Positions 16,755 through 46,445 of a stretch of DNA of 64,000 nt are shown piece after piece (position 1 is the first letter of the stretch; every line of letters starts with the position of its first letter). Source of the DNA: an uncultured Bacteroidota bacterium (GTDB lineage: Bacteria; Bacteroidota; Bacteroidia; Bacteroidales; VadinHA17); NCBI GenBank assembly GCA_903824785.1, contig CAIJYD010000111.1, positions 71,059-135,058 on the forward strand, written 5' to 3'. The position numbers and the translations under genes were made by a program. A model generated the notes under the pieces. That model saw nothing but the letters and a program-made list of their open reading frames with translations, was not told the origin of the DNA and made no database searches.

Positions 16755-18206
16755 TCAACTGTTACCCGGCAGCGGACGCACGGTAGTATTTCCTCCCTGT
16801 GACATCGAAATGTCAAGCGGACCATTTGTTTTGTAGGTTCCACAGGTAAAGTCAGGTATTCTGATGGAATTTGATCCGTTGGCAACCGACCATTCACTGC
16901 AAGGAATTATGGCACTCCAGGAAGCAGCATCATAGACATCCTGTTCAACGGGCAGGCCATTTCTCAAACAATCTATCAGGCGCCAGTTCATTAAAAAGTC
17001 CATTCCTCCGTGACCTCCCATCTCTTTGGCCAGCTCTCCCATTCGTTTTATAATTTCGGGATTGTATTTTTTTGTCAGTTCAGCCATCTCATCTTCACTA
17101 AACCAATCATCTTTGCCTTGCGAGATCCTGCCCGGTAGCGGATACTTCTGAAAAATCCCCTTTGTGCCGACAATGCTATGAATCCGTGAATAGACCCTCG
17201 GACTGGTAATATCGTATTGCAGCATAATTGTCTTACCATTCTGGGTTCTGATAAGTGAGGAATTCATGTTTCCCCGGTATGATTTTGTGTCGAATTCTTT
17301 GTAGAAAGGATCCTTTTTTGCCAGCTCGGACGCCATCTTTCCCATTGTAAAATCGTTTGATGCCATGGAAGTCAGAAGAAGAAGCCTGTCTCCTCTGTTT
17401 ATATCCATAGCCTGACAAACCGGACCTAGGCCATGTGAAGGATAGAGGTTGGCATTGCGGTGCTGACTTTCTCTGATGCGCCACATGTCGCCACTTTCAG
17501 GAACCGGAAAATTGTTCTGATGGTGCAGATAACCTGCATCAGCATGAATCAGCTCACCAAAATAACCCTGTCTGACCATATTAAGTGTCAGTAATTCAAA
17601 AAAATCGTAACAGCAGTTTTCGAGCATCATGCAATGTTTTTTTGTTTTTTCCGATGTCTCGACTAATTTCCATGCCTCTTCAAGTGTAGATACTGCAGGA
17701 ACTTCTACAGCTACGTGCTTTCCATTTTCCATGGCAAAAGTGGCCATTTGTGCATGGAGAGGCCCTCTGGGCACAGCAATATAGATCAGGTCGATATCGC
17801 TGTTTTTGCACAATTCCCTCCAGATTATTTCGCTGCCTCCATAAGCTTTGGCAGCAGGCAATCCATGTTTGGAAAGTATTTTTTGTGAGTTTTCAACTCT
17901 TACCATCCTTTTATCGCACAATGCTTTTATTTCAACACCGTTAATTGCTGCCAGTGCTTCAACATGGGTTGGGCCGCGATTACCAAGACCAATAAATCCA
18001 ACACGGACTTTTTCGATCTTTGGAGCGGAATAACCGCACATATTAAAATGTTGCTGATGATCCTGCTCAGAAAGCTCCCTGATATGTGCGAAAGGATCTG
18101 ATTTTTTATCCTGCTTTCCTGTATCCCCTTGTGATATTCCCGGAAGCATCATTCCTGTTCCTGTTACACCGGCTATTCTGATAAAATTCCTTCGGTCTGT
18201 TTTCAT
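16755..18206 (-). CDS. Tat-signal Gfo/Idh/MocA protein, GH109-like (NAD-dependent alpha-N-acetylgalactosaminidase family candidate)
   Basis: Twin-arginine motif DRRNFIR. Rossmann motif VRVGFIGLGNRG. MMLENCCY and FGELIHADAGYLH resemble my memory of the Elizabethkingia GH109 enzyme. Confidence 0.7.
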   Translation of the reverse strand: MKTDRRNFIRIAGVTGTGMMLPGISQGDTGKQDKKSDPFAHIRELSEQDHQQHFNMCGYSAPKIEKVRVGFIGLGNRGPTHVEALAAINGVEIKALCDKRMVRVENSQKILSKHGLPAAKAYGGSEIIWRELCKNSDIDLIYIAVPRGPLHAQMATFAMENGKHVAVEVPAVSTLEEAWKLVETSEKTKKHCMMLENCCYDFFELLTLNMVRQGYFGELIHADAGYLHHQNNFPVPESGDMWRIRESQHRNANLYPSHGLGPVCQAMDINRGDRLLLLTSMASNDFTMGKMASELAKKDPFYKEFDTKSYRGNMNSSLIRTQNGKTIMLQYDITSPRVYSRIHSIVGTKGIFQKYPLPGRISQGKDDWFSEDEMAELTKKYNPEIIKRMGELAKEMGGHGGMDFLMNWRLIDCLRNGLPVEQDVYDAASWSAIIPCSEWSVANGSNSIRIPDFTCGTYKTNGPLDISMSQGGNTTVRPLPGNS

Positions 18207-18287
18207 CCTGTAAGAAATTAAATTAATATTTTGATAAAATGTACTTTCTGAAATGAACGATGATAAATAGTTTCAATACGAATTAGC

Positions 18288-19472
18288 TTAATTAAAAACA
18301 CTCTCTTTTAAGAATCCGGGGGTATATCCGTTATCAACAGCCCATTTTACAGATGCCATTACTTTCTCCCTGAAATCAGGCTGGTAATTTACATAATCCT
18401 TATAAAAATATTGTTCATGTATCATTAAATCGATGTAACGGGGATTATAGGTTTTTTTTACATTATCCAGATTTGGTAATATCTGATCAAGAGTTACAGT
18501 ATTGATTACAATGGCAATCCGGGAAAAAATAATTCCCTCTTTATTGTCTTTCCAGATAAAGCGGCTCTTCAGGTGCCTTCTTTGTTCCTCAGTGAGGTAA
18601 TATGAAACAGGAGACAGATTATCATCAACATTAAAATATCCGGCAAGTATTGTATAGCCCTGATCTTTTAAAGCTCTGCAACCTTCAGTGGTCCCTTCTC
18701 CAAAGTGAAGTGTAGTCTCGGGGCCAAGAACCTCCTCTCCTGCAAATCTCCTGATCTGTTCCATGACCAGATTGCAGTCTTTGTATACCTGATCGTAACC
18801 GGCGTTGATATAAGGTCTGCCGGGAAATTCTGCAAGAGAATGAAAACTGAGTGCAAGCCACTCTGAATTTGCTTTCCATTCCGGTTTGAACTTAGCAGTC
18901 ATCTGAGAGAGGTTGAATCCCTCAGTCTCATAAAATAAGTTGAGATGAATTCTGGCACCATAGGTCTCATGTACCTTTTTCAGGAATCCCAGATATGGAT
19001 TATCAAAAATAGATTTATACTTATCTGCATTCAGGTTAATATCTTTCAGGAACAGGATATTGTCGTCGATAGAGAGACGGAACTTATTGGCATAGTTTTT
19101 AAGCCAGAATACTTTAATGTTTTCTTCATACCCTTTTTCCCCCTCAATAAGTTTTATTGTATTCTCGTACTGTTTCAGGCTGATATCATCCTGAAAAACA
19201 TTATCGATGAACTTTGCCTTTATTCCATTCACGTTGATTCTGCTTCCGGCAGGAGCTGAGATTTTTACTTTTATTATCAGGGTTTCGTTATTGACAGTTC
19301 CATCATATTCATTTAGCATATCGCCATCAACAGGAGTAATGAACTTTATCTCACTCTCACTGCTTTCCGGTGTTGTCTGTTTATTAAAAAGTGAAAATCC
19401 GGAAAGGCAAACAGCAACTCCGATTACTATTATCAGTATAAAAAAACTCCTTTTACTGCTATTCCTCATCAT
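18288..19472 (-). CDS. Hypothetical membrane-anchored or lipoprotein, unassigned
   Basis: N-terminal hydrophobic anchor with Cys (GVAVC). Weak CE4-like SIDDN motif only. No confident family. Confidence 0.5.
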   Translation of the reverse strand: MMRNSSKRSFFILIIVIGVAVCLSGFSLFNKQTTPESSESEIKFITPVDGDMLNEYDGTVNNETLIIKVKISAPAGSRINVNGIKAKFIDNVFQDDISLKQYENTIKLIEGEKGYEENIKVFWLKNYANKFRLSIDDNILFLKDINLNADKYKSIFDNPYLGFLKKVHETYGARIHLNLFYETEGFNLSQMTAKFKPEWKANSEWLALSFHSLAEFPGRPYINAGYDQVYKDCNLVMEQIRRFAGEEVLGPETTLHFGEGTTEGCRALKDQGYTILAGYFNVDDNLSPVSYYLTEEQRRHLKSRFIWKDNKEGIIFSRIAIVINTVTLDQILPNLDNVKKTYNPRYIDLMIHEQYFYKDYVNYQPDFREKVMASVKWAVDNGYTPGFLKESVFN

Positions 19473-19493
19473 AAAACTTTTATTTAAATGAAA

Positions 19494-20429
19494 TTATGGT
19501 AAGCTATGTGGGTTTGATACGGTTTTTACCTGGTTAATCCTGTAATCGACCAGTGTAACTATCACTGTAGATACAAGAACGAGGCTGCCACCTGCAATGG
19601 CTGAGCCCGTAACTCTTTCTCCGAGCCAGAGAGCTGCTATCATTAAACCAAAAAACGAAATAAGATAGTTTGATAATGCCACCTGCATTGCATCGAGTGC
19701 TTTTAAAGCTTTAAAGAACAAGATCATTGAGAGAAAATTGTGAAATACCGTCAATAATGACATTCCCATCCATGTCTGTTTTGTAAAAGATGGAATCCTG
19801 GCAAACACATCATGTTCATAATATATTACCAAAGGTGTAAGAAGGATAACCATAAAGATATAGATAAAGAACAGCATCTCCATGGGAGTATATCTCTCTG
19901 AGATTTTTTTACATCCTGTGTTGAAATATGCGTTTGCTGCAACAGAAAAAAAGATCAAAATATTTCCTAAACTATATTTTGATCCGAAATTAAGATTCTT
20001 AAAATCACTTGATGAGCAAAGGATTACACCCACGATGGCCAGTACAAAACTGATCCATCGTATCTTATTCATTGTTTCTTTTAAAAGAAGGAAAGCAAAA
20101 ATCGCAGTAATTACCGGCAGGCAAAGTGAGATTATTGAAGCATTGCTTGCCAGCGAATACTGTGTGCCCCAGGTCATAAGTACCTGTGCAGGAAAAGCAC
20201 CCAGGAAGGCGAGCTGAGCAAAAATTAAGATATCCTTCAGGGATTTACCGCTCTTTGAGAAATCCTTCAAGGCAAACGGAGTAAGGAATATCGTAGCCAA
20301 AAGCATCGGAGCCCAGACAGTAAAATATGGTCCTACCTGATCCTGTGTAAGTTTAATACAGGTAAACTGAAGCGACCACATAAGGTTACATGCAAACAAT
20401 AAAGCCCACGAAATAATTGTTTTTCTCAT
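19494..20429 (-). CDS. DMT superfamily (EamA-like) transporter
   Basis: 311 aa with about 10 TM helices arranged as two EamA-type halves. Confidence 0.75.
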   Translation of the reverse strand: MRKTIISWALLFACNLMWSLQFTCIKLTQDQVGPYFTVWAPMLLATIFLTPFALKDFSKSGKSLKDILIFAQLAFLGAFPAQVLMTWGTQYSLASNASIISLCLPVITAIFAFLLLKETMNKIRWISFVLAIVGVILCSSSDFKNLNFGSKYSLGNILIFFSVAANAYFNTGCKKISERYTPMEMLFFIYIFMVILLTPLVIYYEHDVFARIPSFTKQTWMGMSLLTVFHNFLSMILFFKALKALDAMQVALSNYLISFFGLMIAALWLGERVTGSAIAGGSLVLVSTVIVTLVDYRINQVKTVSNPHSLP

Positions 20430-20520
20430 ACTCTTTTAGCCGGAACCATTATTTGTCAAATGCGCTTTGTTTTCCTTTTTCTGACATAGACACCCTCTGT
20501 TTCAGATGTTTATGCACAGA

Positions 20521-27907: not shown

Positions 27908-29293
27908 TTACTTATTTAATTTCTTAACCTGCACCGGAATACTGATAAGGTCGGTACGTGTTTTTCCATTTTCGGTTATTCTGGCAAGAGTATATACGGT
28001 GCCATCATCCCCTATTGCAATTGAGTTGACATAATAGGGACGCTGACCATCGGGATAATAAACAGCACCATGATCGAGATATTTTCCTGTTGGAATATCA
28101 TAAGTTATCAAATGAAGATCTTCCATACCCTTTGCTTCGCCTTTTGCTGTTGAGGTGGCACCCATAACCCGTTTTCCGTCAACATATACGGGGCCTCCTG
28201 TGAGGTAATTGATTGTACGCCCGTCGGGGCCAAGTTTGAAACCGAGATACCCGTAGCTGAACTGGTCACCCATACCTGTAAGTTTTGATGGCACTGAAGT
28301 AAGCCTTTCAAGAACTTCAATCCGGGGTGCAACCGGATCGAACCGGAACAGATAGCCTGAGTTGCCATGAACACCATAGATCTTTTTCTCTGGTCCATAC
28401 CAGAAAGCCTGACGCCAGTTATAAGCCATACTTCCTGATGTGAAAATATCATAAGTCCCAAAGTAGTCCTTCTTCATATCCTCACCTTCAATAGTCTCCA
28501 CAACATCCGATCCAAGTTTCAGGCACTTGATCTGCCCCTCAGCATTGGTAAGATAAACGGAACCATCTTCAGAATTAATGGCAATAGAACGGCATACTAC
28601 GCGAAAGTCTTTATCCCAGCCATCTTCACCTTTGCCGGTGAAGGGACCAAGATCTTTCATCTCCTTTGTTGCAATATCAAACCTGAAGAGTATACCTGTT
28701 GGCCATGAGAGCCCATAGATAAGACCCCGCTGAGTATCCATGTTCATTGTTATGATACCTTCCTTATTCGGACCGATTCCCAGATCTTCAAATTTCTTTG
28801 TTTTCATGTCGTAGGAAATCAAATGGCCGCCACGGTAAGCTTTGTAGTCACCGGTAGGAAGGCCTGTTTTTTCCATACCTTTAATGATGCTGTAGTAACC
28901 AAGGTGTGTAGCGAAATAGAGTTTGCCGTTTGATTCGACAAAGTTCACATGGCTTTTCCCCTGTGCAACCACTTTCATACCTTTCTCACCGCATATCTCG
29001 GAAAGATCAGCTAAAAATTCAGTTTTTTTGGTTGCCGGGTCGAAAACGAACATCTGACCGGCAACATCCATCAACTGAGAGCAGAGAACATAATAGATCT
29101 TACCATCGCTTGCAGAAGAAATGCCATTATAAGTGTCGTGGGCATGTTCAAAGCCTGAATTATATACCGTGGCAATTAAACTGTCTCCGGGAGTGGATTC
29201 CTCAGGAGCTTCAGCCACCGGTTGAGCCTGTTTGCAACCTGAAATAATCAGTATTGCAAACAGGAGTGTCAACAAAAGTCGGTTTATTCTCAT
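27908..29293 (-). CDS. Lipoprotein, predicted beta-propeller, function unknown
   Basis: Lipobox LIISGC. Recurrent beta-rich repeats of about 45 aa (..G.IY...S.....F.FD..TKK...LG..). Confidence 0.6.
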   Translation of the reverse strand: MRINRLLLTLLFAILIISGCKQAQPVAEAPEESTPGDSLIATVYNSGFEHAHDTYNGISSASDGKIYYVLCSQLMDVAGQMFVFDPATKKTEFLADLSEICGEKGMKVVAQGKSHVNFVESNGKLYFATHLGYYSIIKGMEKTGLPTGDYKAYRGGHLISYDMKTKKFEDLGIGPNKEGIITMNMDTQRGLIYGLSWPTGILFRFDIATKEMKDLGPFTGKGEDGWDKDFRVVCRSIAINSEDGSVYLTNAEGQIKCLKLGSDVVETIEGEDMKKDYFGTYDIFTSGSMAYNWRQAFWYGPEKKIYGVHGNSGYLFRFDPVAPRIEVLERLTSVPSKLTGMGDQFSYGYLGFKLGPDGRTINYLTGGPVYVDGKRVMGATSTAKGEAKGMEDLHLITYDIPTGKYLDHGAVYYPDGQRPYYVNSIAIGDDGTVYTLARITENGKTRTDLISIPVQVKKLNK

Positions 29294-29333: not shown

Positions 29334-30704
29334 TTATATTGAATTCAGTTTATCTCTGTTTTCGTAAACTTTTAAAACAGCATTAATCACATCATCCATG
29401 TCAGCGAGTGTTCCGAGCAGAGGACCTGAAGCCCATAGCATTACCATATCCTGACAAACCTGGTCACATTTTGGAAGAAGCAGTTCATCCTGGAATTTTT
29501 TCAGCCTTGCAGCACCAAACATTGTTTTATACTCAGGTAAAGTCTGAATATGGCTGGTCCAAGGCTCTTTATGCAATCCGTTTGAAATATAACCGCTTAA
29601 GCTGATACCTTCAGCAGCAACTGCTTTCAGGAATTTATCACGTGGTGCATTATTGAAATGCTCTTTTTTATACGACCATGTATAGAGGTAGAACGATCCT
29701 GCAGTTGTTCCTTCGTACAATTTCTGTGGTACAAGGCCGGGACAGCCTTTAAGTTTCTCAGTCAGGTATTTTGCATTTCTGTTACGAGTATTATGACGCT
29801 CTCTTACTCCTGGCATTTGACCAAGAAGTACTGCACCTTCAAATTCATTCATCCTGTACTTTGAACCGATAGTTTCTGTTTTGCCTCTTTTTGAAGTGCC
29901 ATGATTCTGAACAGTATAGCACTTATCCATTAACTCATCATTATTACTTATGAGTCCACCGCCCTCACCGCAGGAGAGAACTTTGCTTGTCTGGAAGCTA
30001 AAGCAGCCAACATCACCAATGGTTCCAATTGTTTTACCCTGATACTCAGCAAGAAATGCCTGGCAGGCATCTTCAATTACTTTCAGATTATTCTTCTTTG
30101 CAATTGCCATAATACGCTCCATATTACAAGGCTGACCCATAATATGAACAGGCATAATAGCTTTTGTTCTTTTTGTAATTTTCCGTTCCACATCGTCAGG
30201 ATCGAGCTGGAATGAATCGGGATCAAGATCAGCCATTACAGGAAGTGCGCGGCTAACCAGAATTGCCTGTATTGTTCCTGGATCTGTATAGGGAGAAGTG
30301 ATTATCTCGTCACCCGGGCCTATTCCAAGAGCTTCAACTGCAGTATTTAATGCCTGTGTGCCTGATCCAACGCATACACTCGACTTGGTTCCAAGTATTT
30401 TAGCAAATTCTTTCTCAAATGTTGATACGGTACCGGTTGCTGATTGAATCCTGCACCAGATACCACTTCTTGTTGTTTTAACAACTTCTTCAACTACTTT
30501 CTCATCAACATAAGGCCAATCAGGCCAGACTTTTGCAGGAGCAACAGGGGTTCCTCCCAGGATGGCAAGCTTTCCTGAATTATTGTTTATTGATGTAATA
30601 TTCCCAAAAGCCGGAATAGAGCTTGATACAGCAACAGCAGCAGTACCTGCAGATACTGTGGAAATGAATTTCCGTCTGGTAAAATCGTTCTTTTTCATCA
30701 TCAT
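29334..30704 (-). CDS. Tat-signal DegT/DnrJ/EryC1/StrS family aminotransferase (predicted periplasmic)
   Basis: Twin-arginine motif TRRKFIS followed by a hydrophobic h-region and AFG. DegT core AIMPVHIMGQPCNM, VIEDACQAF and FSFQTSKVLSCGEGG. Confidence 0.85.
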   Translation of the reverse strand: MMMKKNDFTRRKFISTVSAGTAAVAVSSSIPAFGNITSINNNSGKLAILGGTPVAPAKVWPDWPYVDEKVVEEVVKTTRSGIWCRIQSATGTVSTFEKEFAKILGTKSSVCVGSGTQALNTAVEALGIGPGDEIITSPYTDPGTIQAILVSRALPVMADLDPDSFQLDPDDVERKITKRTKAIMPVHIMGQPCNMERIMAIAKKNNLKVIEDACQAFLAEYQGKTIGTIGDVGCFSFQTSKVLSCGEGGGLISNNDELMDKCYTVQNHGTSKRGKTETIGSKYRMNEFEGAVLLGQMPGVRERHNTRNRNAKYLTEKLKGCPGLVPQKLYEGTTAGSFYLYTWSYKKEHFNNAPRDKFLKAVAAEGISLSGYISNGLHKEPWTSHIQTLPEYKTMFGAARLKKFQDELLLPKCDQVCQDMVMLWASGPLLGTLADMDDVINAVLKVYENRDKLNSI

Positions 30705-35450: not shown

Positions 35451-36851
35451 TTACTTTTTACTGTCCAGAAGTTTTCTCATTGAGCTCATAACAATGTCTT
35501 CAGCTTCTTCTGTAACGGCACTTGCAGGTCCCGCTTCATAGCCACCCTCTTTATATGCTTTTGCAGTGCAGATATAGCCGGTAGCATAATCCCCATAAGC
35601 TGCCATGGCAACAAACAAGTCGGGACGCATTTTCTTTGCAGCAAGCTGATATTCAACAAAAAGTTCGCCCGGCATAAAGAGTATACGGGCACGACCAATG
35701 GCAAGGCAGCCTATATTAATCTTCATCCCTGCCTGTGTGCGTTTGAGCCAGGCCAGTTTAAAAAGGTTATTTGTCAGATAAACAGGATCTTTGATTTTTA
35801 TCTCTTCCTGAATATTTTGAATATACGATGCAGGAGTTAATGCTATTGGATCCGTTTTCCAGCTAACATCAGCGGAAGAAACAGGTTCTTTGGTGGTTGA
35901 TTCCCAGGCTCTTTTCATTCCGTCGGCTAATCTTTCAGCAAGTACTCCTCTTCTTTCCTTTGATCCGTCATTGTATTTGCCGGCAGCCAGGTTGCCTCCT
36001 GCACCGCTAAAATGAACGTGTAATGCCTGAGGAACCGCAAGTTGCCTCATAAAACGTGCAACACCCGGAAAGTCAGGATTTGCTATCCCAAGCCGATAAT
36101 AGCTTTGTGGATGGCAGGCGTAATAACTCAAAACAGCTACCGGCTGGTTGCCATTCCAGAAACTTACCAGAGCAACCATCGGATCTGTCAATCCTTCAGG
36201 CTCGGCCCTCAAAGCAGAATCCCTGCAAGATGAAGATCTGTTTCCTTTCACTAATCCATCGGGACCAAGAATACGCCGGTTTGAAGCTACCTCATAAACC
36301 ACTGCCTGACCAACGCCAATATGTGTTACAGGCTGAGCCGATTCCAGAGAGTTCTTTACTGAAATACCCAGACGTTTTATAAGATCATATTGAAAAGAAC
36401 TTTCATAACTAAGCGGACTGAGCCCTGCTTCCTTTAAAATTTTCTCAGCACCAAAGTCGCTTATAGGAGCGTCGTGCTGGTGAACGGTATGTACAGCAAC
36501 CCTCTCAGGTATTGTTCCTGCTGCCTCAGCAAGGGTTTTTTTAAAAGCATCCTGGCTCTCGTTGGATATGCCAATCCAGTCAACAGAGCAAAGCACAACA
36601 GGCTGGCCGGCTCCGAGTAAAACAATCCCTTTGGCTCTTAGTCCAAGGTCCCACGAGTTTATCATTACATCGTACGCAAGACGACTACCGACCGGCGGTG
36701 TGGCATCAACATCGAAAGTGGAAATACGAAGAGCTGTATTCACTCCCGGCCCGGAGGAATTTCCATCTTCCTTAATAACTGCAAGTGCCGGCAGTGTTAA
36801 TATTAACAGGTACAGGAGAAGTTTTATTTTTAGTTCAGGGAAGCATTTCAT
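35451..36851 (-). CDS. Secreted protein, paralog 1 of a tandem pair (distant neutral-ceramidase-like pattern)
   Basis: Signal peptide. FDVDATPPVGSRLAY...GLRAKGIVLLG..QPVVLCSVDW...VAVHTVHQHDAP parallels the DITPP..G...L.ARA..L......D....ATHTHS.P layout of neutral/alkaline ceramidase N-domains. This is a weak assignment from memory. Confidence 0.6.
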   Translation of the reverse strand: MKCFPELKIKLLLYLLILTLPALAVIKEDGNSSGPGVNTALRISTFDVDATPPVGSRLAYDVMINSWDLGLRAKGIVLLGAGQPVVLCSVDWIGISNESQDAFKKTLAEAAGTIPERVAVHTVHQHDAPISDFGAEKILKEAGLSPLSYESSFQYDLIKRLGISVKNSLESAQPVTHIGVGQAVVYEVASNRRILGPDGLVKGNRSSSCRDSALRAEPEGLTDPMVALVSFWNGNQPVAVLSYYACHPQSYYRLGIANPDFPGVARFMRQLAVPQALHVHFSGAGGNLAAGKYNDGSKERRGVLAERLADGMKRAWESTTKEPVSSADVSWKTDPIALTPASYIQNIQEEIKIKDPVYLTNNLFKLAWLKRTQAGMKINIGCLAIGRARILFMPGELFVEYQLAAKKMRPDLFVAMAAYGDYATGYICTAKAYKEGGYEAGPASAVTEEAEDIVMSSMRKLLDSKK

Positions 36852-36903: not shown

Positions 36904-38310
36904 TCAGTGTTTACCCTTCTGATTACTTTTCAGGAGTTTTGATATTGCTGCCATAATAATGCCTTCAGCTTCATTTGTTACATTAGATACCCCGATTTCG
37001 TAGCCACCCTGGTCATAAGATAACGCAGTTCCGATATAAGCAGGGTCAGAATCGCCATATGCTGCCATGGCCACAAACAGGTCGGGACGCATGGCTTTGG
37101 CTGCAAGCTGATACTCGACGAAAAGTTCCCCCGGCATATTTAAAATACGTGCCCTTCCAAGAGAAAGGCATGAAATATCGAGCTTCTCTCCTTTTTCAGA
37201 ACGTTGCAGCCATGCAATCTTTTTCGCATTTGCACGAAGGAGTGTAGTATCTTTCAGATTTATCTCTGATTTTATTTTTTTTATTGATTCCGGTAAAGGA
37301 AGTAAAACGGGCACAACAGACCATTCTACCTGACTTGCAATTAATGGTTCAATTTTGGTTGATTCCCAGGCTCTCTTCATGCCATCGGCAAGTCGTTCAG
37401 CCAGTATCCCGCGGTTCTCATGAGAACCATCATTATATTTTCCTGCGCCAACGTTTCCTCCTGCACCTGTAAAATGTATATGAAGTGCATCAGGAACAGC
37501 GAGTTGTCGGTAAAAACGGGCAACTCCGGGATAATCAGGATTAGCTACCCCTAAACGGTAATAGCTTTGCGGATGTGTTGCATAATAGCTTAACACTGCA
37601 ACCGGTTTTGAGTTATTCCAGAAGCTGATTACCGACACCATTGGATCGATAACACCTTCAGGTTCTGCGCGGATAAGTGAATCGCGGCAAGTGGTCATTC
37701 GACCTGCCCGTACCTTACCATTATCATCCAGTATCCGCCTGTTTGAAGCGACCTTGAAAACCTGGGCCTCTCCAAAACCAATATGTGTTACGGCCGAACC
37801 ATTTTTCAGACAGTTTTTTACTGAAACTTCAAGCCGTTTAATCACTTCCCTCTGAAAAGTACCCTCGTAAGTCTCCGGTTTTAACCCGGCATTATTAAGG
37901 ATCCGTTCAGCGGCAAAATTACTTCGAGGAGCATCGTGCTGGTGCAAAGTCTGAACGGCAACCCTTGAGGGAATTGTTCCGGCACCATTTGCTACCGCAG
38001 TACGGAAAGCATTATAACTCTCACCATCAATGCCTAGCCAGTCAATAGCCACCAGAACAACAGGTTGTCCTGCTCCTGACAATACAATGCCTTTTGCCCT
38101 TAAACCAAGATCCCACGAATTAACATTCGGATCGTATGATAAAAAACTTCCAACAGGAGGGGTAACATCAATATCAAATGTGGAAACTGTCAGCCCCGGT
38201 GTTTTTGGTTCCTGTTCAATCGCGCTCACATTTGCATATCCCTGAATAAACAACATAGATATCAGAATAATGCTGAGCAATGTTCTGAATAATTTTTTAT
38301 CTGAGCACAT
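36904..38310 (-). CDS. Secreted protein, paralog 2 of the tandem pair
   Basis: Collinear with 35451..36851 at roughly 60% identity by eye. Shared blocks include NSWDLGLRAKGIVL, HQHDAP, VASNRRIL, AEPEG, PVAVLSYYA.HPQSYYRLG.ANPD.PGVARF, LAERLADGMKRAWEST and MPGELFVEYQLAAK.MRPDLFVAMAAYGD. Confidence 0.6.
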   Translation of the reverse strand: MCSDKKLFRTLLSIILISMLFIQGYANVSAIEQEPKTPGLTVSTFDIDVTPPVGSFLSYDPNVNSWDLGLRAKGIVLSGAGQPVVLVAIDWLGIDGESYNAFRTAVANGAGTIPSRVAVQTLHQHDAPRSNFAAERILNNAGLKPETYEGTFQREVIKRLEVSVKNCLKNGSAVTHIGFGEAQVFKVASNRRILDDNGKVRAGRMTTCRDSLIRAEPEGVIDPMVSVISFWNNSKPVAVLSYYATHPQSYYRLGVANPDYPGVARFYRQLAVPDALHIHFTGAGGNVGAGKYNDGSHENRGILAERLADGMKRAWESTKIEPLIASQVEWSVVPVLLPLPESIKKIKSEINLKDTTLLRANAKKIAWLQRSEKGEKLDISCLSLGRARILNMPGELFVEYQLAAKAMRPDLFVAMAAYGDSDPAYIGTALSYDQGGYEIGVSNVTNEAEGIIMAAISKLLKSNQKGKH

Positions 38311-43400: not shown

Positions 43401-43742
43401 GTCATAGACAGCGTATTTTACTTTTTCTTTAAAGATATCATCTAAAATATCTTTAATAGTCTCATTTTCTGCATCAATAGTAACATTTCTATCAACGTCG
43501 ATCAGCTTAGGACTATAAAGGAAAAAAAACTCGCTCTGATTTTCAATTGCTTTAAGGGCTTCTGAAATTTTAACATCGTCAAGTTTAAGATTTAGCTTAG
43601 TCAGCTGAGAATAGGACTCAGTTGCCCAGAGCTGAATAATTGTAAAAAACGATAAAAACAGGGTTAGCTTCATGACTTTGATTGTTTTTTTTGATAAGAA
43701 TCCAAAAGAAATCCTATCATAATAATCTCGAAATTTTTTCAT
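40401..43742 (-). CDS. susC: SusC/RagA family TonB-linked outer-membrane transporter with an N-terminal signalling (STN) extension
   Basis: STN-like ISEALKAIENQSEFFFLYSPKLID. CarboxypepD_reg VSGIVADKNGPIPGVNVVITG..GTITDISGKYVI. Plug GYGTQKKSDLTGSV...PLIVLDGVIY..ILKDASSAAVYGSRSSNGVLLITTKKG. The barrel ends in GLRLSF. An alternative start at M24 (43673) gives a canonical signal peptide. Confidence 0.92.
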   Translation of the reverse strand: MKKFRDYYDRISFGFLSKKTIKVMKLTLFLSFFTIIQLWATESYSQLTKLNLKLDDVKISEALKAIENQSEFFFLYSPKLIDVDRNVTIDAENETIKDILDDIFKEKVKYAVYDRQVILTSNEQFGVIPEAPQQKMVSGIVADKNGPIPGVNVVITGSTKGTITDISGKYVIDITDGAKSLTFTFIGMEPQEVAIGALTQINVTMVESSIGLDEVIVIGYGTQKKSDLTGSVARITMADKVSQANVNLSQALSGASAGVNIEGRGGAYSEPSLSIRGQTSLSASDQPLIVLDGVIYNGSISNINISDVETIDILKDASSAAVYGSRSSNGVLLITTKKGKTQKPVISFDMYKGFQDMTNNPMRVMNSDEFATRLADWDYQENLYTWYKTNPTSVAGQPVRPDVTNRNVVSSHLRTYEEQQNYLAGNEIDWVKEVLRVAPIQNYNLSLQGGSEKLSYFLSTSYSDVNGIQLNDEFKRTTVRSNLESVVNSWLTLGLNTSYSYRDNSGLAASLSSARIASPLVNNNIGSEKYDIYLGGELFQPYPLANLFVDNLNVNNELYAVGSAKITVPWVKGLKYELNYSQTYNNANVNSYHNSRTPAGVENKGYAIKNPSERRNWIVNNIVSYNRTFGNHQVNSTLLFSRENLNGSASTLTAKGFENEALGYNNMGLGTIATVASSGYEENSLSYMARINYSFMSRYMFTGTIRRDGYSGFGAGNKWATFPSASLAWVASNEPFLKDLGFYLKVRTSYGKNGNQGIGRYSSLSTMGTTYYVYGSTTATALYPSSLSNANLGWETTASFNSGIDFGILKNRITGSIDVYTAKTSDVLVKRQLPPSSGYASVWANMGEVDNKGVEIELKSINFDGVFKWESSFVFSLNRDKISKLYGGENDKDVGNGWFVGEPISAKYDYEMAGGVWSEEELFNRTILAGWYPGQFKYVDQNGDLLIEPTLDRKIIGYGAPSYRFSINNTLSYKNFNFSFFINSIQGGDNHYLADNAAMINPLYYMQQRMNNSAINAYWRPDAPTTNTTAIYNNPLRQSGIYQSRSFVRLQDVSVAYNLGQRALDKLKLKSCQIYVSSKNPYVWTKWQGWDPEIGISDTPLMRNIITGLRLSF

Positions 43743-43836
43743 AGATTTGGATGGATTAAGTTTACTAAAGTTTTTAAGAGAAATCAGGTTCTTAGTCTGG
43801 CGGGATAGTGTGTCACCACTGTCCTGCTTTTTTTTT
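43742..43836 (+). ncRNA. Candidate cis-antisense sRNA (DonS-like): promoter box to terminator
   Basis: TAGATTTG (43742-43749) fits the Bacteroides -7 consensus TAnnTTTG on the + strand. The terminator at 43800-43836 would give an RNA of about 80 nt complementary to the susC 5' leader. No -33 element recognised. Confidence 0.3.
43800..43836 (+). terminator. Plus-strand intrinsic terminator in the fecR-susC spacer, antisense to the operon
   Basis: 11-bp stem GCGGGATAGTG / CACTGTCCTGC with a 6-nt loop, then nine T (43828-43836). Two stem positions are G-U wobbles in plus-sense RNA but C-A mismatches in minus-sense RNA. Confidence 0.5.
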
Positions 43837-43886
43837 AACTAGTTGTTCTTCATAGGCATAAAAGATTAATTAGGCAAGGTATTATT

Positions 43887-44975
43887 CTATTTGTTTTTTT
43901 TCGTTAAGATGACCTTTCTTTTTGCAAAAGTTCCGTTTTCTGTCACTTCCCGGTTCGAAATTGTATAACTGACAGGTGTCATTAGTGTCATAAGTTCCAT
44001 TACCTGAGGGAGTGTTTCATTTACAAATGTAGCAGTATAATTAAGCTCATTTAATTCAACATCTCTTATCTGTATGTCAACATTGAACCATCTGCTTAAT
44101 TTCCTGATAACCTGATCCATTGGTTCCGCATTAAAGATAAGTTTACCAAATCTCCATGAATAATAGCGGTTATCATTAATAGACCTTGTGGAAACCTCTT
44201 CACTAATCTTCTGGTAAACAGAAATATCGGTTGGTTTCATTACACGCAATGAGGAAGCTATACCCTTGGCGGATGGTTTCTGCAGTTCAACCATCCCTTT
44301 AATCAGGGAGATCTCAATATTATCTTCCTCAGGATAGGCCATAATGTTAAAAACTGTACCACGGGCGACAACCTGTAACTTGCCGGCTGTTACAATAAAA
44401 GGAACTTTTGAATTTGGTATCACCTCAAAATATCCTTCACCGTTAAGTTCCACCTTACGACTATTCCCACTGAAAAATGCAGGATACTTCAATGAACTGT
44501 TATGATTAAGCCACACACCTGAACCATCGGGCAATGTAACTTTTGTAATGGCGTCAACTGAGGAAAAAACTTCATTATACACCTGATTTACAGCAATATA
44601 ATCATACCTGGATGTCTCATACTTATAAGACATATAGAATCCGAAACCGAGAGCCGGCAGCAAGAGTACTGCTGCTGCCCTGAGAAGAATTTTCATAAAA
44701 TACTCTCTTCTTCTGAAATTAACAATATTATGATTTGATTTCTTCAGGATTTTTTTCGATTCTGAAAGATTTATTTCATGATGTATCCTTCCAAGCAAAT
44801 GGTCAAAATCAATCTGATTATTGCCCTCTTCCACCGCTAATTCATCCCATAGCTGCAATAAGACCGATTTGCCTTGTGGTGTTCTGGCTGATTCTACGAA
44901 CCATTCCAGCACAGAATCCAATTCCTCTCCCGAACAACTATTATTGCAATACTTTGTTAACAGTTCCTTATTCAT
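43887..44975 (-). CDS. FecR family anti-sigma factor
   Basis: 362 aa with an N-terminal cytoplasmic region, a single TM (AAVLLLPALGFGFYM), a periplasmic FecR domain and a C-terminal WFNVDIQI-type domain. It lies directly upstream of the STN-bearing SusC. Confidence 0.85.
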   Translation of the reverse strand: MNKELLTKYCNNSCSGEELDSVLEWFVESARTPQGKSVLLQLWDELAVEEGNNQIDFDHLLGRIHHEINLSESKKILKKSNHNIVNFRRREYFMKILLRAAAVLLLPALGFGFYMSYKYETSRYDYIAVNQVYNEVFSSVDAITKVTLPDGSGVWLNHNSSLKYPAFFSGNSRKVELNGEGYFEVIPNSKVPFIVTAGKLQVVARGTVFNIMAYPEEDNIEISLIKGMVELQKPSAKGIASSLRVMKPTDISVYQKISEEVSTRSINDNRYYSWRFGKLIFNAEPMDQVIRKLSRWFNVDIQIRDVELNELNYTATFVNETLPQVMELMTLMTPVSYTISNREVTENGTFAKRKVILTKKNK

Positions 44976-45154
44976 TATTTAATCGTATTATTTTGATTAA
45001 CAAGCACCTTCGGCAAATGCCGGAAGTGCTCGATTACCATGTTAACCAATTTTACCAAACCTAATTCTAAATAGTTAGACGCAGGAGATTGTATTTACCA
45101 CTACCTGCAAATGGATAAAAATGAATAATAATTAAAAGTATTTTTTAATGATAT

Positions 45155-45261
45155 GGGGTTGAAGGGGTTGAAGGGGTTGAAAGGGTTGAAAGGGTTGAAA
45201 AATGGCTTGCGGTTTGCGGTGTGCGGCGAAGGTTAAAGGGGTTGAAGGGGTTGAAAGGGGG
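45155..45261. repeat. Composite direct repeat, copy A
   Basis: Five tandem 9-mers (3x GGGGTTGAA, 2x AGGGTTGAA), then AAATGGCTTGCGGTTTGCGGTGTGCGGCGAAGGTTAAA, then 2x GGGGTTGAA. Confidence 0.9.
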
Positions 45262-45346
45262 AGGATATGGTAATTTAAAGTATCGTAACCGGATCTGGAG
45301 ATCCTTCGCTGGCGCTCAGGATGACAGGACTTTATGGGATCACATA

Positions 45347-45421
45347 GGGGGAAAGAAGTGGCGATTCGAAGAAAACTAGCGTTCAGGACAAATTGTTGGC
45401 GAATCGCCACTTCTTTCCCCC
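45347..45421. repeat. Perfect 22-bp inverted repeat with 31-nt spacer
   Basis: GGGGGAAAGAAGTGGCGATTCG (45347-45368) and CGAATCGCCACTTCTTTCCCCC (45400-45421) are exact reverse complements. Confidence 0.9.
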
Positions 45422-45761
45422 ACCCCCCGTCCTATGATACGAATTGTCATCCCGAATTCCTTCGCCGTCCTCATTTTAAGTCAACCTCTATATCAATATG
45501 GGCGAATGAATGAGGGATCTCCCTCTCTTATGACGACATTGATTAAAAGCTCATAATGTGCAAGTTATAAGATGTTGTTATTAGTAGCACAGTGAGGGAT
45601 TTCTGATTGGAAGAATGATAATTGTTTGCAGAATAAAGGCCATTCCAATGCGGCAGAGCACCGCAATATTAAATCCCAACCAATTATCAAGTGCAAATAT
45701 AAATAATCCAAACCAATAAGACAGAAAGTCACCTTTTACCTTAGGTCGCTATTTCAATGAA

Positions 45762-45841
45762 GGGGTTGAAGGGGTTGAAGGGGTTGAAAATGGCTTGCGG
45801 TTTGCGGTGTGCGGCGAAGGTTAAAGGGGTTGAAGGGGTTG
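45762..45841. repeat. Composite direct repeat, copy B
   Basis: 3x GGGGTTGAA, then AATGGCTTGCGGTTTGCGGTGTGCGGCGAAGGTTAAA, then GGGGTTGAAGGGGTTG. The core of about 60 nt is identical to copy A except for a one-nt A-run length difference. Same orientation, 607 nt from copy A. Confidence 0.9.
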
Positions 45842-45857
45842 TTTATTAAGGTATGTA

Positions 45858-46445
45858 CTAAACAAAAAGATAGCAGAATAGTAAGACTGTAAGGGAGTAG
45901 TTGCCTAGTTTTTCGCGGATCGTTTTAAGTGCGCGCGACATATGGTTTTCTATGGTGTTTTCAGAAATATTCAGGCGTTCTGAGATGTCGCTATATTTCA
46001 GACCTTCAACTCTGTGCAGAATATAAACCTCCTTCTGACGTTTGGGTAATGACTCAAGTATTTTATCAAGTTTATCAGAAAGTTCGTTATATTCAAGTTC
46101 CACATTTGCAGGTTCCTCGTTAATTTCCTGAAGAGACTTTAAATAATCAACAAATTCAGTATCCCTGACTTTCTTCCGCAGGTTGGATATAGCCAGATTG
46201 TAAGCTATGGTAAATACATAAGATTTAATTGAAGAGCCCTTGTTAACTCTTTTGCGACTTTGCCATAAATTAAGAAAAACATCCTGGATCAGATTTTCTG
46301 TCTCTTCCTGAGATTTAAGAAGTGAATAGCCGAATTTATATAATCTCGCTGAATACTTTTTATATAATAGATCAAAAGCAAACATATTGTCTGCCTTAAT
46401 CTCCTGCATTAATTCTTCATCACTATATGAAATAAAATCTTTCAT
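45858..46445 (-). CDS. ECF-type RNA polymerase sigma-70 family factor
   Basis: 195 aa. Region 2 (LIQDVFLNLW, YVFTIAYNLAISNLRK) and region 4 HTH (LPKRQKEVYILHRVEGLKYSDISERLNISENTIENHMSRALK). Confidence 0.9.
   Translation of the reverse strand: MKDFISYSDEELMQEIKADNMFAFDLLYKKYSARLYKFGYSLLKSQEETENLIQDVFLNLWQSRKRVNKGSSIKSYVFTIAYNLAISNLRKKVRDTEFVDYLKSLQEINEEPANVELEYNELSDKLDKILESLPKRQKEVYILHRVEGLKYSDISERLNISENTIENHMSRALKTIREKLGNYSLTVLLFCYLFV

Follow-up and report, generated by a model that had tools for sequence, protein, structure and literature searches.

The locus occupies positions 16755-46445 of the window (the whole stretch of 64,000 nucleotides that was analysed) and consists of 20 consecutive ORFs, all of them on the minus strand, which run from a sigma factor (45858-46445) to a GH109-like protein (16755-18206); this run, described in an earlier note, was reproduced with identical coordinates. 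In that order the intergenic gaps measure 882, 144, 56, 321, 52, 39, 172, 22, 57 and 85 bp, and then 40, 62, 52, 44, 38, 87, 91, 21 and 81 bp towards GH109. Since 15 of the 19 are below 100 bp, the description of mostly short gaps stands, but the FecR-SusC gap (144 bp) has to be added to the three exceptions originally given. No convincing internal terminators were found within the 20-gene block. Both ends of the locus are defined by housekeeping genes, pheT beyond the sigma side and surE (15855-16658) with lpxB next to GH109, and the genes between them form one insert-like block; the boundary at the GH109 end, previously considered uncertain, is well defined. The arrangement is not due to chance: other genomes have syntenic loci with the same core genes.

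Annotation with Pfam and NCBIfam confirmed the sigma factor, FecR, SusC, SusD, Kelch protein, class-III aminotransferase, two DegT proteins, Plug-only protein, MFS and EamA transporters and GH20, as well as a protein combining GH109_C with a GFO N-terminal domain. The locus is a genuine sugar-uptake cluster of Bacteroidales, an ECF-sigma/anti-sigma SusC/SusD PUL of the trans-envelope signalling type. The ECF-type sigma-70 factor (195 aa; Sigma70_r2 and r4_2; TIGR02985 at 144 bits, cut-off 126) is separated from the FecR-type anti-sigma factor (43887-44975, 362 aa; Pfam FecR and FecR_C) by a spacer of 882 bp (44976-45857), whereas in relatives this spacer measures only 65-84 bp. It carries a repeat-flanked insert: the 9-mer GGGGTTGAA forms arrays at 45146-45265 and 45753-45853, a perfect inverted repeat of 22 nt lies at 45347-45421, and a search of the spacer gave no ORF and no Rfam match. 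The SusC/RagA TonB-dependent transporter (40401-43742, 1113 aa; TIGR04056 at 760 bits) contains Plug and CarboxypepD_reg domains and an N-terminal STN signalling extension, the STN match being weak (E 7e-5), and it is followed by a SusD-family lipoprotein (38632-40344, 570 aa; SusD_RagB and SusD-like_3; lipobox LPSC). Further into the block there is a barrel-less CarboxypepD_reg and Plug protein with a signal peptide (30790-31506, 238 aa; Pfam Plug), which covers only positions 3-211 of TIGR04056 and shares 40% identity with the plug of the locus SusC.

The cargo is composed mainly of GFO oxidoreductases and aminotransferases, as had been claimed, and its sole classical Koshland-type glycosidase is one GH20. 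Of the five Gfo/Idh/MocA proteins reported earlier, four with an RR motif, the count is corrected to four, three with the motif. The cytoplasmic one (31564-32829, 421 aa; GFO_IDH_MocA) has an N-terminal Rossmann GxGxxG. The twin-arginine members comprise a protein of 346 aa (26805-27845; GFO_IDH_MocA), another of 447 aa (25409-26752) that is distantly related to BT_2158, a glycoside 3-dehydrogenase (NF058561 at 148 bits against a cut-off of 750; best PDB matches 8tdf and 8tdh), and a GH109-family NAD-dependent glycosidase of 483 aa (16755-18206; Glyco_hydro_109_C at 142 bits; PDB 6t2b at 320 bits and 2ixa at 223 bits). The GH20 is a secreted, divergent beta-N-acetylhexosaminidase (21934-23994, 686 aa; Glyco_hydro_20 and 20b; PDB 6yhh at 84 bits) with an HVGFDE motif containing D305/E306. 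RRxF motifs are found in these three GFO proteins and in the DegT protein at 29334-30704; only by counting the DegT does one reach four RR proteins. With the TIGR01409 TAT_signal model, GFO 26805-27845 was the sole protein to pass (20.8 bits, cut-off 16.7); TAT_signal scores of the RR proteins were weak (13-19 bits, cut-off 22.7), and GFO 25409-26752 gave no TAT_signal match. The genome has a Tat pathway, because tatA (965-1162, minus strand, 65 aa; Pfam TatA_B_E at 58 bits) is present elsewhere in the window.

The aminotransferase predicted to be exported is a DegT/DnrJ/EryC1/StrS PLP enzyme of 456 aa (29334-30704; PF01041 at 300 bits) with the twin-arginine motif TRRKFIS, hereafter Tat-DegT. 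In alignments it keeps the Schiff-base lysine and the PLP aspartate, K241 and D212 falling at the catalytic positions in 7b0d, 8gyh and 7b0m. Its twin-arginine motif, noticed earlier, is borne out by conservation across phyla: it is present in 102 of 109 DegT ORFs from loci of Bacteroidota, Planctomycetota, Verrucomicrobiota and Acidobacteriota, and also in the top 17 full-length representatives. The closest cytoplasmic relatives are DegTs of about 410 aa whose alignment begins at query residue 44, and by sequence comparison Tat-DegT belongs to a distinct Tat-signal clade spanning the four phyla. The best PDB matches include scyllo-inositol and 2-deoxy-scyllo-inosose aminotransferases; PDB scores favour no substrate class, so regiochemistry (C2, C3 or C4) is not inferable from them. 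A second, cytoplasmic DegT-family aminotransferase (20521-21846, 441 aa; PF01041 at 281 bits) shares 34% identity with Tat-DegT and keeps the lysine, and the cytoplasmic class-III aminotransferase (32852-34222, 456 aa; Aminotran_3 at 269 bits) has no signal peptide and reached no equivalog cut-off in NCBIfam. Tat-exported PLP enzymes have precedent in PvdN and PtaA (PMC6206403; PMC9305348).

Two genes following susD, parA (36904-38310, 468 aa, Sec-type signal peptide) and parB (35451-36851, 466 aa), encode secreted proteins which share 60% identity and fall in one family cluster; the earlier note listed them as two secreted paralogs and did not recognise an amidase nature. Sequence searches with parB gave no Pfam match and no PDB match. 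Foldseek paired its AF2 model (pLDDT 83) with 2zws, 2zxc and 4wgk (E about 1e-21, probability 1.0), and hhalign against a Pfam Ceramidase_alk family gave a probability of 99.5%; this profile alignment shows that HxH, H, E, Y, Y and NRR are kept. Because of this neutral-ceramidase fold and the retained metal and catalytic residues, parA and parB are probably amidases, putatively Zn-dependent. True ceramidases are longer (630-670 aa), whereas parB lacks their C-terminal domain and its target-normalised TM-score is only 0.47. The fold could equally point to lipid amide substrates.

The other proteins are transporters, propellers and an anchored protein. The MFS sugar transporter (24033-25364, 443 aa) is of the GluP/NagP type, with TIGR01272 at 204.4 bits (cut-off 202.55) and the NagP model at 323 bits, below its cut-off of 625; the EamA/DMT transporter (19494-20429, 311 aa; two EamA domains) weakly matches a carboxylate/amino acid/amine transporter model. 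A secreted Kelch beta-propeller (34395-35411, 338 aa; Kelch Pfam families) is accompanied by a highly conserved lipoprotein beta-propeller (27908-29293, 461 aa; lipobox ISGC; AF2 pLDDT 77), which gives only generic propeller matches and has 3769 homologs, none carrying a name. The protein of 394 aa at 18288-19472 belongs to a family of 1345 homologs, none Pfam-assigned, and has no PDB match; this copy shows KR plus a hydrophobic anchor, and the family consensus N-terminus is NRRxF, with TAT_signal matched in 11 of 33 members, which suggests that its homologs are normally Tat-exported. The proteins previously left unassigned do not fall into ordinary GH or CE families: the paralogs have a ceramidase fold, the lipoprotein resembles propellers in general, and the anchored protein comes from a family, usually Tat-exported, that matches neither Pfam nor PDB.

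The three-gene core of the locus turns up in four or more bacterial phyla, and Chitinophaga chungangae and C. barathri are among its cultured carriers. Among 45 Tat-DegT loci flanked by 5 kb or more on both sides (raw counts), a ceramidase-fold gene lies within 5 kb of Tat-DegT in 34, and directly adjacent in 26; any amidase is near it in 38, and Tat-GFO, DUF1080 or AP_endonuc_2 in 20. Other frequent neighbours are the conserved propeller lipoprotein, whose family adjoins Tat-DegT in at least 23 loci, Tat-GFO, DUF1080 and xylose-isomerase-like genes, and reverse look-ups from parB homologs and from a propeller-lipoprotein homolog each lead to an adjoining RR-DegT. The 149 other neighbour representatives include no classical GH or PL family that recurs near the module. 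In L007, the syntenic locus closest to this one, there are sigma, FecR, SusC, SusD, a ceramidase-fold gene, the plug protein, Tat-DegT, two Tat-GFO and MFS in a single run, and a Kelch gene is also present in locus L084. In related loci LacI regulators replace sigma/anti-sigma, NagB and GH20-like genes are present, and some carry Peptidase_M55 D-aminopeptidase genes and a MurQ-like SIS gene. Genes 7-9 (Kelch, class-III aminotransferase, cytoplasmic GFO) and 17-18 (cytoplasmic DegT, EamA) are not kept beside Tat-DegT in other genomes, and for this reason the block of 20 may not work as a single unit.

The hexosamine or HexNAc context proposed from the start is supported by the GH20 with its HVGFDE motif, a true GH109 and the NagP/GluP-type MFS, together with NagB and GH20-like genes in related loci; judged from sequence, gene context points to hexosamine or HexNAc. 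What is directly observed is the set of genes, their folds and conserved catalytic residues, the RR motifs and the synteny kept between genomes. On this basis we tentatively propose, at a confidence slightly short of even, a periplasmic route in which glycans of N-acylated amino sugars first lose their acyl groups, are next transaminated to keto-sugars and are finally cleaved or reduced. Under predicted co-regulation by the sigma factor, the cell would import an oligosaccharide with a high content of N-acylated amino sugars, whether HexNAc, hexosamine or another aminodeoxy sugar, and break it down in the periplasm largely without Koshland glycosidases; a plausible source would be the surface glycans of microbial or host cells. 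In the order we infer, terminal HexNAc would be removed by GH20 and the GH109, predicted to be Tat-exported; N-acyl groups would then be stripped by the parA/parB metallo-amidases to leave free amines, and PLP-loaded Tat-DegT would convert the sugar amine into a ketone, the model specifying no periplasmic amino acceptor. The keto-glycoside could be beta-eliminated, or reduced to an ordinary sugar by Tat-GFO with tightly bound NAD(P), the conserved propeller lipoprotein and the 394-aa protein being candidates for elimination/hydration. Products would enter by the GluP/NagP-type MFS and be finished by the cytoplasmic GFO, the class-III aminotransferase and the second DegT, and EamA may shuttle an amino- or keto-acid co-substrate.

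ECF-sigma/anti-sigma PULs are classically host-glycan PULs, and this architecture, the catalytic D-E pair of GH20, the bona fide GH109, the BT_2158-like GFO, the NagP/GluP MFS and a known pathway already in print would all suit a conventional PUL for host or microbial HexNAc glycans. There, GH20 and GH109-type NAD-dependent glycosidases would do the cleaving, the other Tat-GFO would be further GH109/GH4-like or 3-keto-pathway enzymes, and aminotransferases and amidases would handle released monosaccharides or side groups with no role in bond cleavage. We consider this unlikely, though worth serious attention, as it leaves unexplained the conserved RR export of DegT in four phyla, its tight linkage to ceramidase-fold amidases and the absence of a recurring classical GH around the module. 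The block could also be a mosaic, only partly under sigma control, with a short PUL (sigma to about Kelch) beside unrelated operons: a cytoplasmic aminotransferase/GFO pair, the Tat-DegT module and a GH20/DegT/EamA/GH109 group. Such a mosaic would fit the internal gaps of 321 and 172 bp, the lack of conservation of genes 7-9 and 17-18, the LacI replacement and the splitting of sigma and anti-sigma by the 882-bp insert; yet the single strand, the preponderance of short gaps, the lack of convincing terminators, the sigma-through-MFS run in L007 and the flanking housekeeping genes make it rather improbable.

It is very unlikely that the target is a non-glycan amine or amide molecule such as (glyco)sphingolipids, aminocyclitols/aminoglycosides or peptidoglycan fragments, since the SusC/SusD, GluP/NagP MFS, NagB, DUF1080 and AP_endonuc_2 partners indicate carbohydrates, parB is without the ceramidase C-terminal domain and the DegT PDB scores do not separate substrate classes. 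For such a target the ceramidase-fold enzymes would cut lipid or peptide amides and DegT would act as an inosose/inosamine aminotransferase, and it draws on ceramidases as parB's sole structural relatives, on the inositol and inosose enzymes among the DegT matches, on the M55 and MurQ-like genes of some related loci, and on GH20 and GH109 as possible trimmers of glycolipid head groups. Finally, a GFO dehydrogenase with a DegT aminotransferase is the classic 3-amino-sugar route (WbpB/WbpE, GnnA/GnnB, NtdC/NtdA), and the resemblance to these cytoplasmic pairs, besides weak NCBIfam matches to UDP-GlcNAc 3-dehydrogenase, might suggest periplasmic oxidation and amination of the cell's own surface glycans or lipid A. 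We judge this biosynthetic role highly improbable: by Pfam the locus has no glycosyltransferase, nucleotidyltransferase, NDP-sugar dehydratase, flippase or polymerase, the periplasm has no NDP-sugars, and in several phyla the module lies among importers, amidases and GHs within uptake loci of the SusC/SusD kind.

The elimination or reduction step of the preferred reading, periplasmic deacylation and transamination, parallels the published 3-keto-glycoside pathway. Bacteroides and Alistipes have periplasmic, NAD-bound GFO enzymes, exported by the Tat route, that break glycosides through 3-oxidation followed by elimination and hydration (PMC8121099; bioRxiv 10.1101/2024.03.25.586180); these systems are BT2156-2159/AL1-4, and NCBIfam includes BT_2158 and BT_2159 models. 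The known pathway uses a lyase (AP_endonuc_2) and a hydratase (DUF1080), both absent from this window, which speaks against the preferred reading. The earlier view that such enzymology is undescribed for a PUL thus fails for Tat-GFO oxidation/elimination; for the exported aminotransferase and amidase module, which was not found in the literature searched, it seems to hold, and the new part is apparently the exported DegT together with ceramidase-fold amidases.

Twenty ORFs of the minus strand follow one another in an unbroken row from the ECF sigma gene (45858-46445) to the GH109-like gene (16755-18206), as seen in the ORF listing and translation, and the locus described in the earlier note is in this way borne out. 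From the sigma gene towards the GH109 side, the intergenic gaps measure 882, 144, 56, 321, 52, 39, 172, 22, 57, 85, 40, 62, 52, 44, 38, 87, 91, 21 and 81 bp, and the G+C content is uniform (0.37-0.45). The GH109-side flank is composed of surE (15855-16658), lpxB, a SpoIID-like gene, ABC/gliding-type genes and dnaN, and the sigma-side flank of a membrane protein without assigned function followed by pheT. Since housekeeping genes are present on both flanks, the border at the GH109 end, which the note had regarded as uncertain, is clear. Elsewhere in the window there are a secreted GH26 (1325-2452; 163 bits), an amidase-signature gene truncated at the window edge (24-905) and an Amidohydro_1 gene (2522-3694), which as far as could be seen have no relation to the locus.

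The locus is a PUL, characterised by an adjoining SusC/SusD pair and a linked ECF sigma/FecR regulator. The sigma factor reaches 144 bits with TIGR02985 (NCBIfam; cut-off 126), the anti-sigma gene carries FecR and FecR_C domains (Pfam), SusC reaches 760 bits with TIGR04056 (cut-off 368) and SusD 91 bits with SusD_RagB, susC and susD being separated by 56 bp. A weak STN match (22.9 bits, below the cut-off of 28.4; E 7e-5) is located in a 135-residue N-terminal extension of SusC. The Rfam scan of positions 14000-49000 gave no match. The promoter and terminator scans gave counts no different from chance, with a promoter model unsuited to Bacteroidota, so they neither support nor oppose the operon structure.

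Related to the regulatory genes, the 882-bp spacer between sigma and anti-sigma (44976-45857) contains two direct repeats of about 100 bp (45146-45265 and 45753-45853) consisting of GGGGTTGAA 9-mers that surround a GC-rich core; this 9-mer array is absent from the rest of the window. The repeats enclose about 490 bp with a perfect 22-nt inverted repeat (45347-45368 / 45400-45421). Because sigma and anti-sigma are separated by only 65-84 bp in the syntenic relatives, the spacer looks like the product of an inserted repetitive or mobile element, which may uncouple the expression of both genes.

The remaining genes mostly encode enzymes and transporters. A secreted Kelch propeller (Pfam), a class-III aminotransferase and a Gfo/Idh/MocA oxidoreductase (GFO), the last two cytoplasmic (Pfam/NCBIfam), an EamA transporter and a cytoplasmic DegT (20521-21846; both by Pfam) and an MFS transporter of the GluP/NagP type (NCBIfam) were found. 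The plug protein (30790-31506; 238 aa) has a signal peptide and CarboxypepD_reg and TonB-receptor Plug domains without beta-barrel, and shares 40% identity with the plug of the locus SusC. As a copy is kept at the same position, upstream of the DegT with the twin-arginine motif, in the closest syntenic locus from another genome (L007), it is probably a real gene instead of a SusC fragment. The GH20 is divergent (PF00728, 69 bits vs a cut-off of 22; best PDB match 84 bits), and keeps the catalytic Asp-Glu pair (H-x-G-x-D-E) as HVGFDE at residues 301-306. The gene at 16755-18206 can be assigned to GH109 by its domains, a Rossmann GFO N-terminal domain and a GH109 C-terminal domain (PF21252, 142 bits vs a cut-off of 27; PDB 6t2b 320 bits, 2ixa 223 bits), and its product bears a twin-arginine (RR) motif. 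Two other GFO proteins with RR motifs (Pfam) are encoded at 26805-27845 and 25409-26752. The latter, with 148 bits for NF058561 (BT_2158; cut-off 750) and 95-98 bits for PDB 8tdf/8tdh, is only a distant relative of the BT_2158-type glycoside 3-dehydrogenase; none of the GFO proteins of the locus reaches the equivalog cut-offs of BT_2158 and BT_2159. Neither AP_endonuc_2 nor DUF1080 is present among the 20 genes (Pfam). The families listed in the earlier note were right, and the GFO count has to be corrected from five with four RR motifs to four with three.

The two secreted paralogs of the locus, here parA (36904..38310; 468 aa) and parB (35451..36851; 466 aa), are 60% identical to each other. 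At least 7,914 database relatives of parB exist, all unnamed and none with a Pfam assignment; neither protein matches Pfam at E <=0.01, Ceramidase_alk included, and single-sequence and profile searches of the PDB with parB found nothing usable. The AlphaFold2 model of parB (pLDDT 83), on the other hand, matches neutral ceramidases alone when compared with the PDB by Foldseek (2zws, 2zxc and 4wgk; E about 1e-21, probability 1.0, TM-score 0.61-0.65 normalised by query and 0.47 by target). Besides, the parB profile aligns at an hhalign probability of 99.5% with a family of neighbour genes positive for PF04734, the aligned positions being H124/H126, H247, E396, Y426, Y438 and R192/R193. We take these HxH, His, Glu, Tyr, Tyr and NRR residues to be those that bind zinc and act in catalysis in the ceramidases of Pseudomonas and of humans. 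The likeness to neutral/alkaline ceramidases (PF04734; 2zws, 4wgk) comprises the fold of the catalytic domain and the His/His/His/Glu/Tyr/Tyr and Arg residues. In contrast to those enzymes, parA and parB have no detectable Pfam or PDB sequence match and lie in a genomic setting related to carbohydrates and not to lipids, and parB (466 aa vs 630-670) has no C-terminal immunoglobulin-like domain. Given that this domain of the true ceramidases is missing, both proteins are read as putative secreted metallo-amidases.

The DegT genes of the locus reach 300 bits with PF01041 in the case of the one with an RR motif, which is predicted to be exported (29334..30704; hereafter RR-DegT), and 281 bits in the cytoplasmic one. 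Residue K241 of RR-DegT, part of the segment FSFQTSK, lines up with the lysine in 7b0d, 8gyh and 7b0m, and the PLP-binding D212 is kept. As the Schiff-base lysine and the PLP aspartate are retained, RR-DegT is by its residues a predicted enzyme of the aminotransferase type and not of the dehydratase type. All the NCBIfam scores for characterised DegT equivalogs (PseC, WecE, ArnB, DesI, etc.) are far under the cut-off, the best being 178 bits vs 375. The assignment of regiochemistry from PDB bit scores was dropped, since C3, C4, C8 and inosose enzymes score alike. A literature search by the PDB codes 7B0D, 7B0M and 8GYH retrieved irrelevant papers only.

Four proteins of the locus, RR-DegT and three GFO proteins, begin with the motifs TRRKFIS, NRRDFVK, NRRAFIK and DRRNFIR. 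By motif, all four N-termini match the Tat consensus used (S/T-R-R-x-F-L-K followed by a hydrophobic region), and tatA is located within the window (965-1162, minus strand). Among the four, only the protein of 26805-27845 passes the TIGR01409 cut-off; in the N-terminal peptides, Pfam TAT_signal gives 13-19 bits for three (below the cut-off of 22.7) and none for 25409-26752. Evolutionary conservation is stronger evidence of Tat export than these HMM scores. Among the loci recovered from other genomes, DegT-family ORFs with 400 aa or more number 109, and 102 of these have the RR motif, those of Planctomycetota, Verrucomicrobiota and Acidobacteriota included. When 1.84 billion representatives at 50% identity were searched with RR-DegT, RR signals were present in all of the best 17 full-length matches (>=302 bits); the cytoplasmic DegTs (about 410 aa) appear from about 270 bits down and align with RR-DegT only from query residue 44.

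The scan of 185,579 species genomes with RR-DegT recovered 80 loci at 46-89% identity. Within Bacteroidota, the carriers are Bacteroidales, Rikenellaceae, Prolixibacteraceae, Draconibacterium and cultured Chitinophaga species; in other phyla, they are Sedimentisphaerales, Pirellulales, other Phycisphaerae, Verrucomicrobiota and Acidobacteriota. The nearest relatives of the window are uncultured Bacteroidales and Rikenellaceae MAGs. All the ORFs of these 80 loci were clustered and the cluster representatives annotated with Pfam, and the set that recurs around RR-DegT contains the parA/parB family, a more canonical Ceramidase_alk family, the propeller lipoprotein (27908..29293 in the window), an Amidohydro_2 pair, Peptidase_M55, Tat-GFO, DUF1080 (3-keto-disaccharide hydrolase), AP_endonuc_2, esterases, LacI regulators, the MFS transporter, NagB and a GH20-like gene. 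The Pfam census of the 149 other neighbour representatives brought out no GH or PL family that recurs, an informative negative though without any hint of the substrate. In the 45 loci where RR-DegT has 5 kb or more of sequence to each side, a ceramidase-fold gene lies within 5 kb in 34 and directly adjoins it in 26, some amidase is present in 38, and GFO, DUF1080 or AP_endonuc_2 in 20. Look-ups seeded with homologs of parB and of the lipoprotein led again to an adjoining RR-DegT, in one case within a Mangrovibacterium PUL (L088, described below).

The closest syntenic locus, L007, retains sigma, FecR, SusC, SusD, a ceramidase-fold gene, the plug protein, RR-DegT, two RR-GFO and MFS, and downstream of these it has a gene for DUF1080. 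No conservation beside the module is seen for the genes of the Kelch protein, the class-III aminotransferase, the cytoplasmic GFO and DegT, and EamA; consequently, the 20-gene block consists of a conserved core and lineage-specific accessories. The core module is widespread among sediment and soil polymer degraders.

Several features of individual related loci (designated by L-numbers) are also worth recording. Many of them (L005, L011, L014, L020, L024, L029, L048 and L049) have RR-DegT in two or three copies, either side by side or with a few genes in between, which suggests that each locus handles several amine positions or substrates. L084 (3627-13998) contains a MurQ-like SIS gene, two Amidohydro_2, Kelch, isochorismatase, LacI, a ceramidase-fold gene, RR-DegT and RR-GFO, and the PUL of L088 (1-11380; Mangrovibacterium) contains SusD, AP_endonuc_2, an esterase, Ceramidase_alk, RR-GFO, Amidohydro_1, DegT and the propeller lipoprotein; these contents hint at peptidoglycan or other cell-wall amino-sugar substrates. 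The ABC-2/ABC_transp_aux genes found about 4 kb past the locus (window 9638-13074) are also near the RR-DegT modules of L016, L021 and L023 (Rikenellaceae-type MAGs), and this neighbourhood may be a recurrent chromosomal site of such modules.

Sequence searches of the PDB with the propeller lipoprotein and with a 394-aa protein (18288..19472), single and profile, also gave nothing usable. The lipoprotein has about 3,800 relatives, the best 120 of these being 77-86% identical to the window copy, and is a beta-propeller by predicted structure. No function was given to it, because Foldseek retrieved only generic propellers from the PDB (TolB, the BT4663 sensor, YncE, Drp35). The family of the 394-aa protein comprises about 1,345 unnamed members, the consensus N-terminus being a Tat signal (NRRxF) and Pfam TAT_signal matching 11 of 33 members; the window copy has KR in place of RR and a longer hydrophobic stretch. 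Of the 33, 21 show a weak signal of a Glucodextran_B-like beta-sandwich at the N-terminus.

The mechanism considered most likely, although with a probability somewhat short of even, is the deacylation of an N-acylated amino-sugar oligosaccharide followed by transamination and keto-glycoside cleavage or reduction. The scaffold, families, folds, conserved catalytic residues, RR motifs and synteny are observed, and the steps themselves are inferred. SusC/SusD would import an oligosaccharide rich in N-acylated amino sugars, terminal HexNAc would be trimmed by GH20 and GH109, and the N-acyl groups would be taken off by parA and parB. The amidase step is placed ahead of DegT because amide hydrolysis necessarily comes before transamination. 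The freed amine would then be converted into a ketone by the PLP-loaded DegT, and the resulting keto-glycoside could undergo beta-elimination, or reduction by the Tat-GFO enzymes, as in the published 3-keto-glycoside pathway. The reasoning also draws on the pairing of GFO with DegT, by which hydroxyl, keto and amino sugars are ordinarily converted into one another. The propeller lipoprotein and the 394-aa protein are candidates for the steps performed elsewhere by AP_endonuc_2 and DUF1080. Finally, MFS would import the products, the cytoplasmic GFO and aminotransferases would finish them, and EamA may carry an amino- or keto-acid co-substrate. To our knowledge the periplasm contains no NDP-sugars, and this agrees with a clade of DegTs related most closely to enzymes with non-nucleotide substrates.

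Other explanations have to be weighed against this one. GH20, GH109 and MFS could all be accounted for by a conventional HexNAc PUL whose accessory enzymes process monosaccharides; this is unlikely, and would leave unexplained the conserved export signal of DegT and its linkage to amidases. That the block is a mosaic of several operons, only part of which is governed by the sigma factor, is improbable: it is compatible with the gaps of 321 and 172 bp, with accessory genes that are not conserved and with the insert of 882 bp that separates sigma from anti-sigma, but a single strand is used throughout, the gaps are short and the synteny extends to L007.

Sphingolipids, aminocyclitols or muropeptides have also been considered as targets instead of glycans, in view of the ceramidase fold, the matches with inosose aminotransferases and the neighbouring M55 and MurQ-like genes; sugar transporters and partners from the keto-glycoside pathway point the other way, and such targets seem quite improbable. 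Envelope biosynthesis is very improbable, every defining gene being missing from the locus: among the 20 genes, Pfam and NCBIfam revealed no glycosyltransferase, NDP-sugar synthesis genes, Wzx/Wzy or ABC export. An O-antigen-type biosynthesis cluster was likewise rejected for the GFO and DegT genes because there are no glycosyltransferases or NDP-sugar genes and putative export signals are present.

A broader proposal, possible but on balance doubtful, goes further: the exported DegT, the ceramidase-fold amidases and the propeller lipoprotein would constitute an unrecognised periplasmic route of deacylation, transamination and elimination, which makes keto-glycosides from N-acylated amino sugars and so cleaves glycans resistant to Koshland glycosidases and to the 3-oxidation pathway. 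Examples of such targets would be hexosamine polymers, or surface polysaccharides of bacteria through their 3- or 4-amino-deoxy sugars. A large part of microbial necromass, and of the glycans on the surfaces of hosts and bacteria, consists of amino sugars; we know of no depolymerising enzymes for many of these, N-acylated 3- and 4-amino-deoxy sugars among them. If the proposal is true, the first carbohydrate-active family of periplasmic PLP enzymes and a new family of carbohydrate de-N-acylases would have been found, both spanning Bacteroidota, Planctomycetota, Verrucomicrobiota and Acidobacteriota. The presence of the core module in cultured Chitinophaga makes the idea directly testable; C. 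chungangae MAH-28 and C. barathri YLT18 have it as a locus of LacI, RR-DegT, ceramidase-fold, SusC, SusD and DUF1080 genes. Even if the chemistry is wrong, three large families without a name, the ceramidase-fold family, the propeller lipoprotein and the 394-aa Tat family, gain a testable context.

Regarding known systems, Bacteroides PULs with ECF sigma/anti-sigma pairs use trans-envelope signalling via an STN-bearing SusC. The window locus shares with them the scaffold for regulation and transport (sigma, FecR, N-terminally extended SusC and SusD) and differs in its cargo, with a single Koshland-type GH, and in the 882-bp insert that parts sigma from anti-sigma. GH109 and GH4 enzymes act by NAD-dependent oxidation and then elimination. 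The protein of 16755-18206 resembles the Elizabethkingia alpha-N-acetylgalactosaminidase (2ixa) and the Akkermansia enzyme (6t2b) as a GH109 with a Tat-type N-terminus; however, it is only one of the 20 genes, and the remaining GFO proteins do not have the GH109 C-terminal domain. Cytoplasmic pairs of a GFO dehydrogenase and a DegT (WbpB/WbpE, GnnA/GnnB, NtdC/NtdA) make amino sugars. In these pairs, as in the window, both enzyme families are joined via a keto-sugar intermediate, whereas they are cytoplasmic, biosynthetic and act on NDP- or phospho-sugars. The putative export signals of the window GFO and DegT, within an uptake locus, imply that these enzymes would work catabolically, opposite to such pairs, and on sugars that are not activated.

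A clade of DegTs exported by Tat would represent a new class among the PLP enzymes of the periplasm. PvdN and PtaA, which are exported by the Tat route, provide a precedent for sending PLP enzymes to the periplasm, although they act on a siderophore side chain, outside glycan catabolism, and judged by this activity they are unlikely to be DegT-fold sugar aminotransferases. Both are PLP enzymes of the periplasm that take part in pyoverdine maturation (PMC6206403, PMC9305348).

A close parallel is offered by BT2156-BT2160 of B. thetaiotaomicron and AL1-AL4 of Alistipes. BT2157 is a DUF1080 3-keto-disaccharide hydrolase, and for BT2158, a Tat-exported GFO, a role in the periplasmic oxidation of disaccharides with bound cofactor has been proposed (Liu et al., PMC8121099). 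Oxidation, elimination and hydration have been reconstituted with AL1-3 and BT1-3 (Nasseri et al., bioRxiv 10.1101/2024.03.25.586180). Most of the interpretation in the earlier note stands, but its view that this enzymology is undescribed for a PUL holds only in part: the oxidative half is published (PMC8121099; 10.1101/2024.03.25.586180), whereas no report of exported DegT or ceramidase-fold proteins in glycan utilisation loci was found in the open-access literature searched. The framing as an oxidative PUL never described should be changed. C3-modified sugars, including 3-amino sugars and aminoglycosides, are reported not to be substrates of the 3-keto-glycoside pathway (bioRxiv 10.1101/2024.03.25.586180), and an exported aminotransferase that turned 3-amines into the same keto intermediates would fill this gap. 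Both systems would have in common a Tat-exported GFO with non-exchanging NAD(P), periplasmic glycosides and a non-Koshland logic of cleavage, and related Tat-DegT loci have DUF1080 and AP_endonuc_2 partners. On the other hand, the published pathway has neither aminotransferase nor amidase, whereas the window locus, which does not have the AP_endonuc_2 lyase and the DUF1080 hydratase, is a full SusC/SusD PUL under putative sigma/anti-sigma control.
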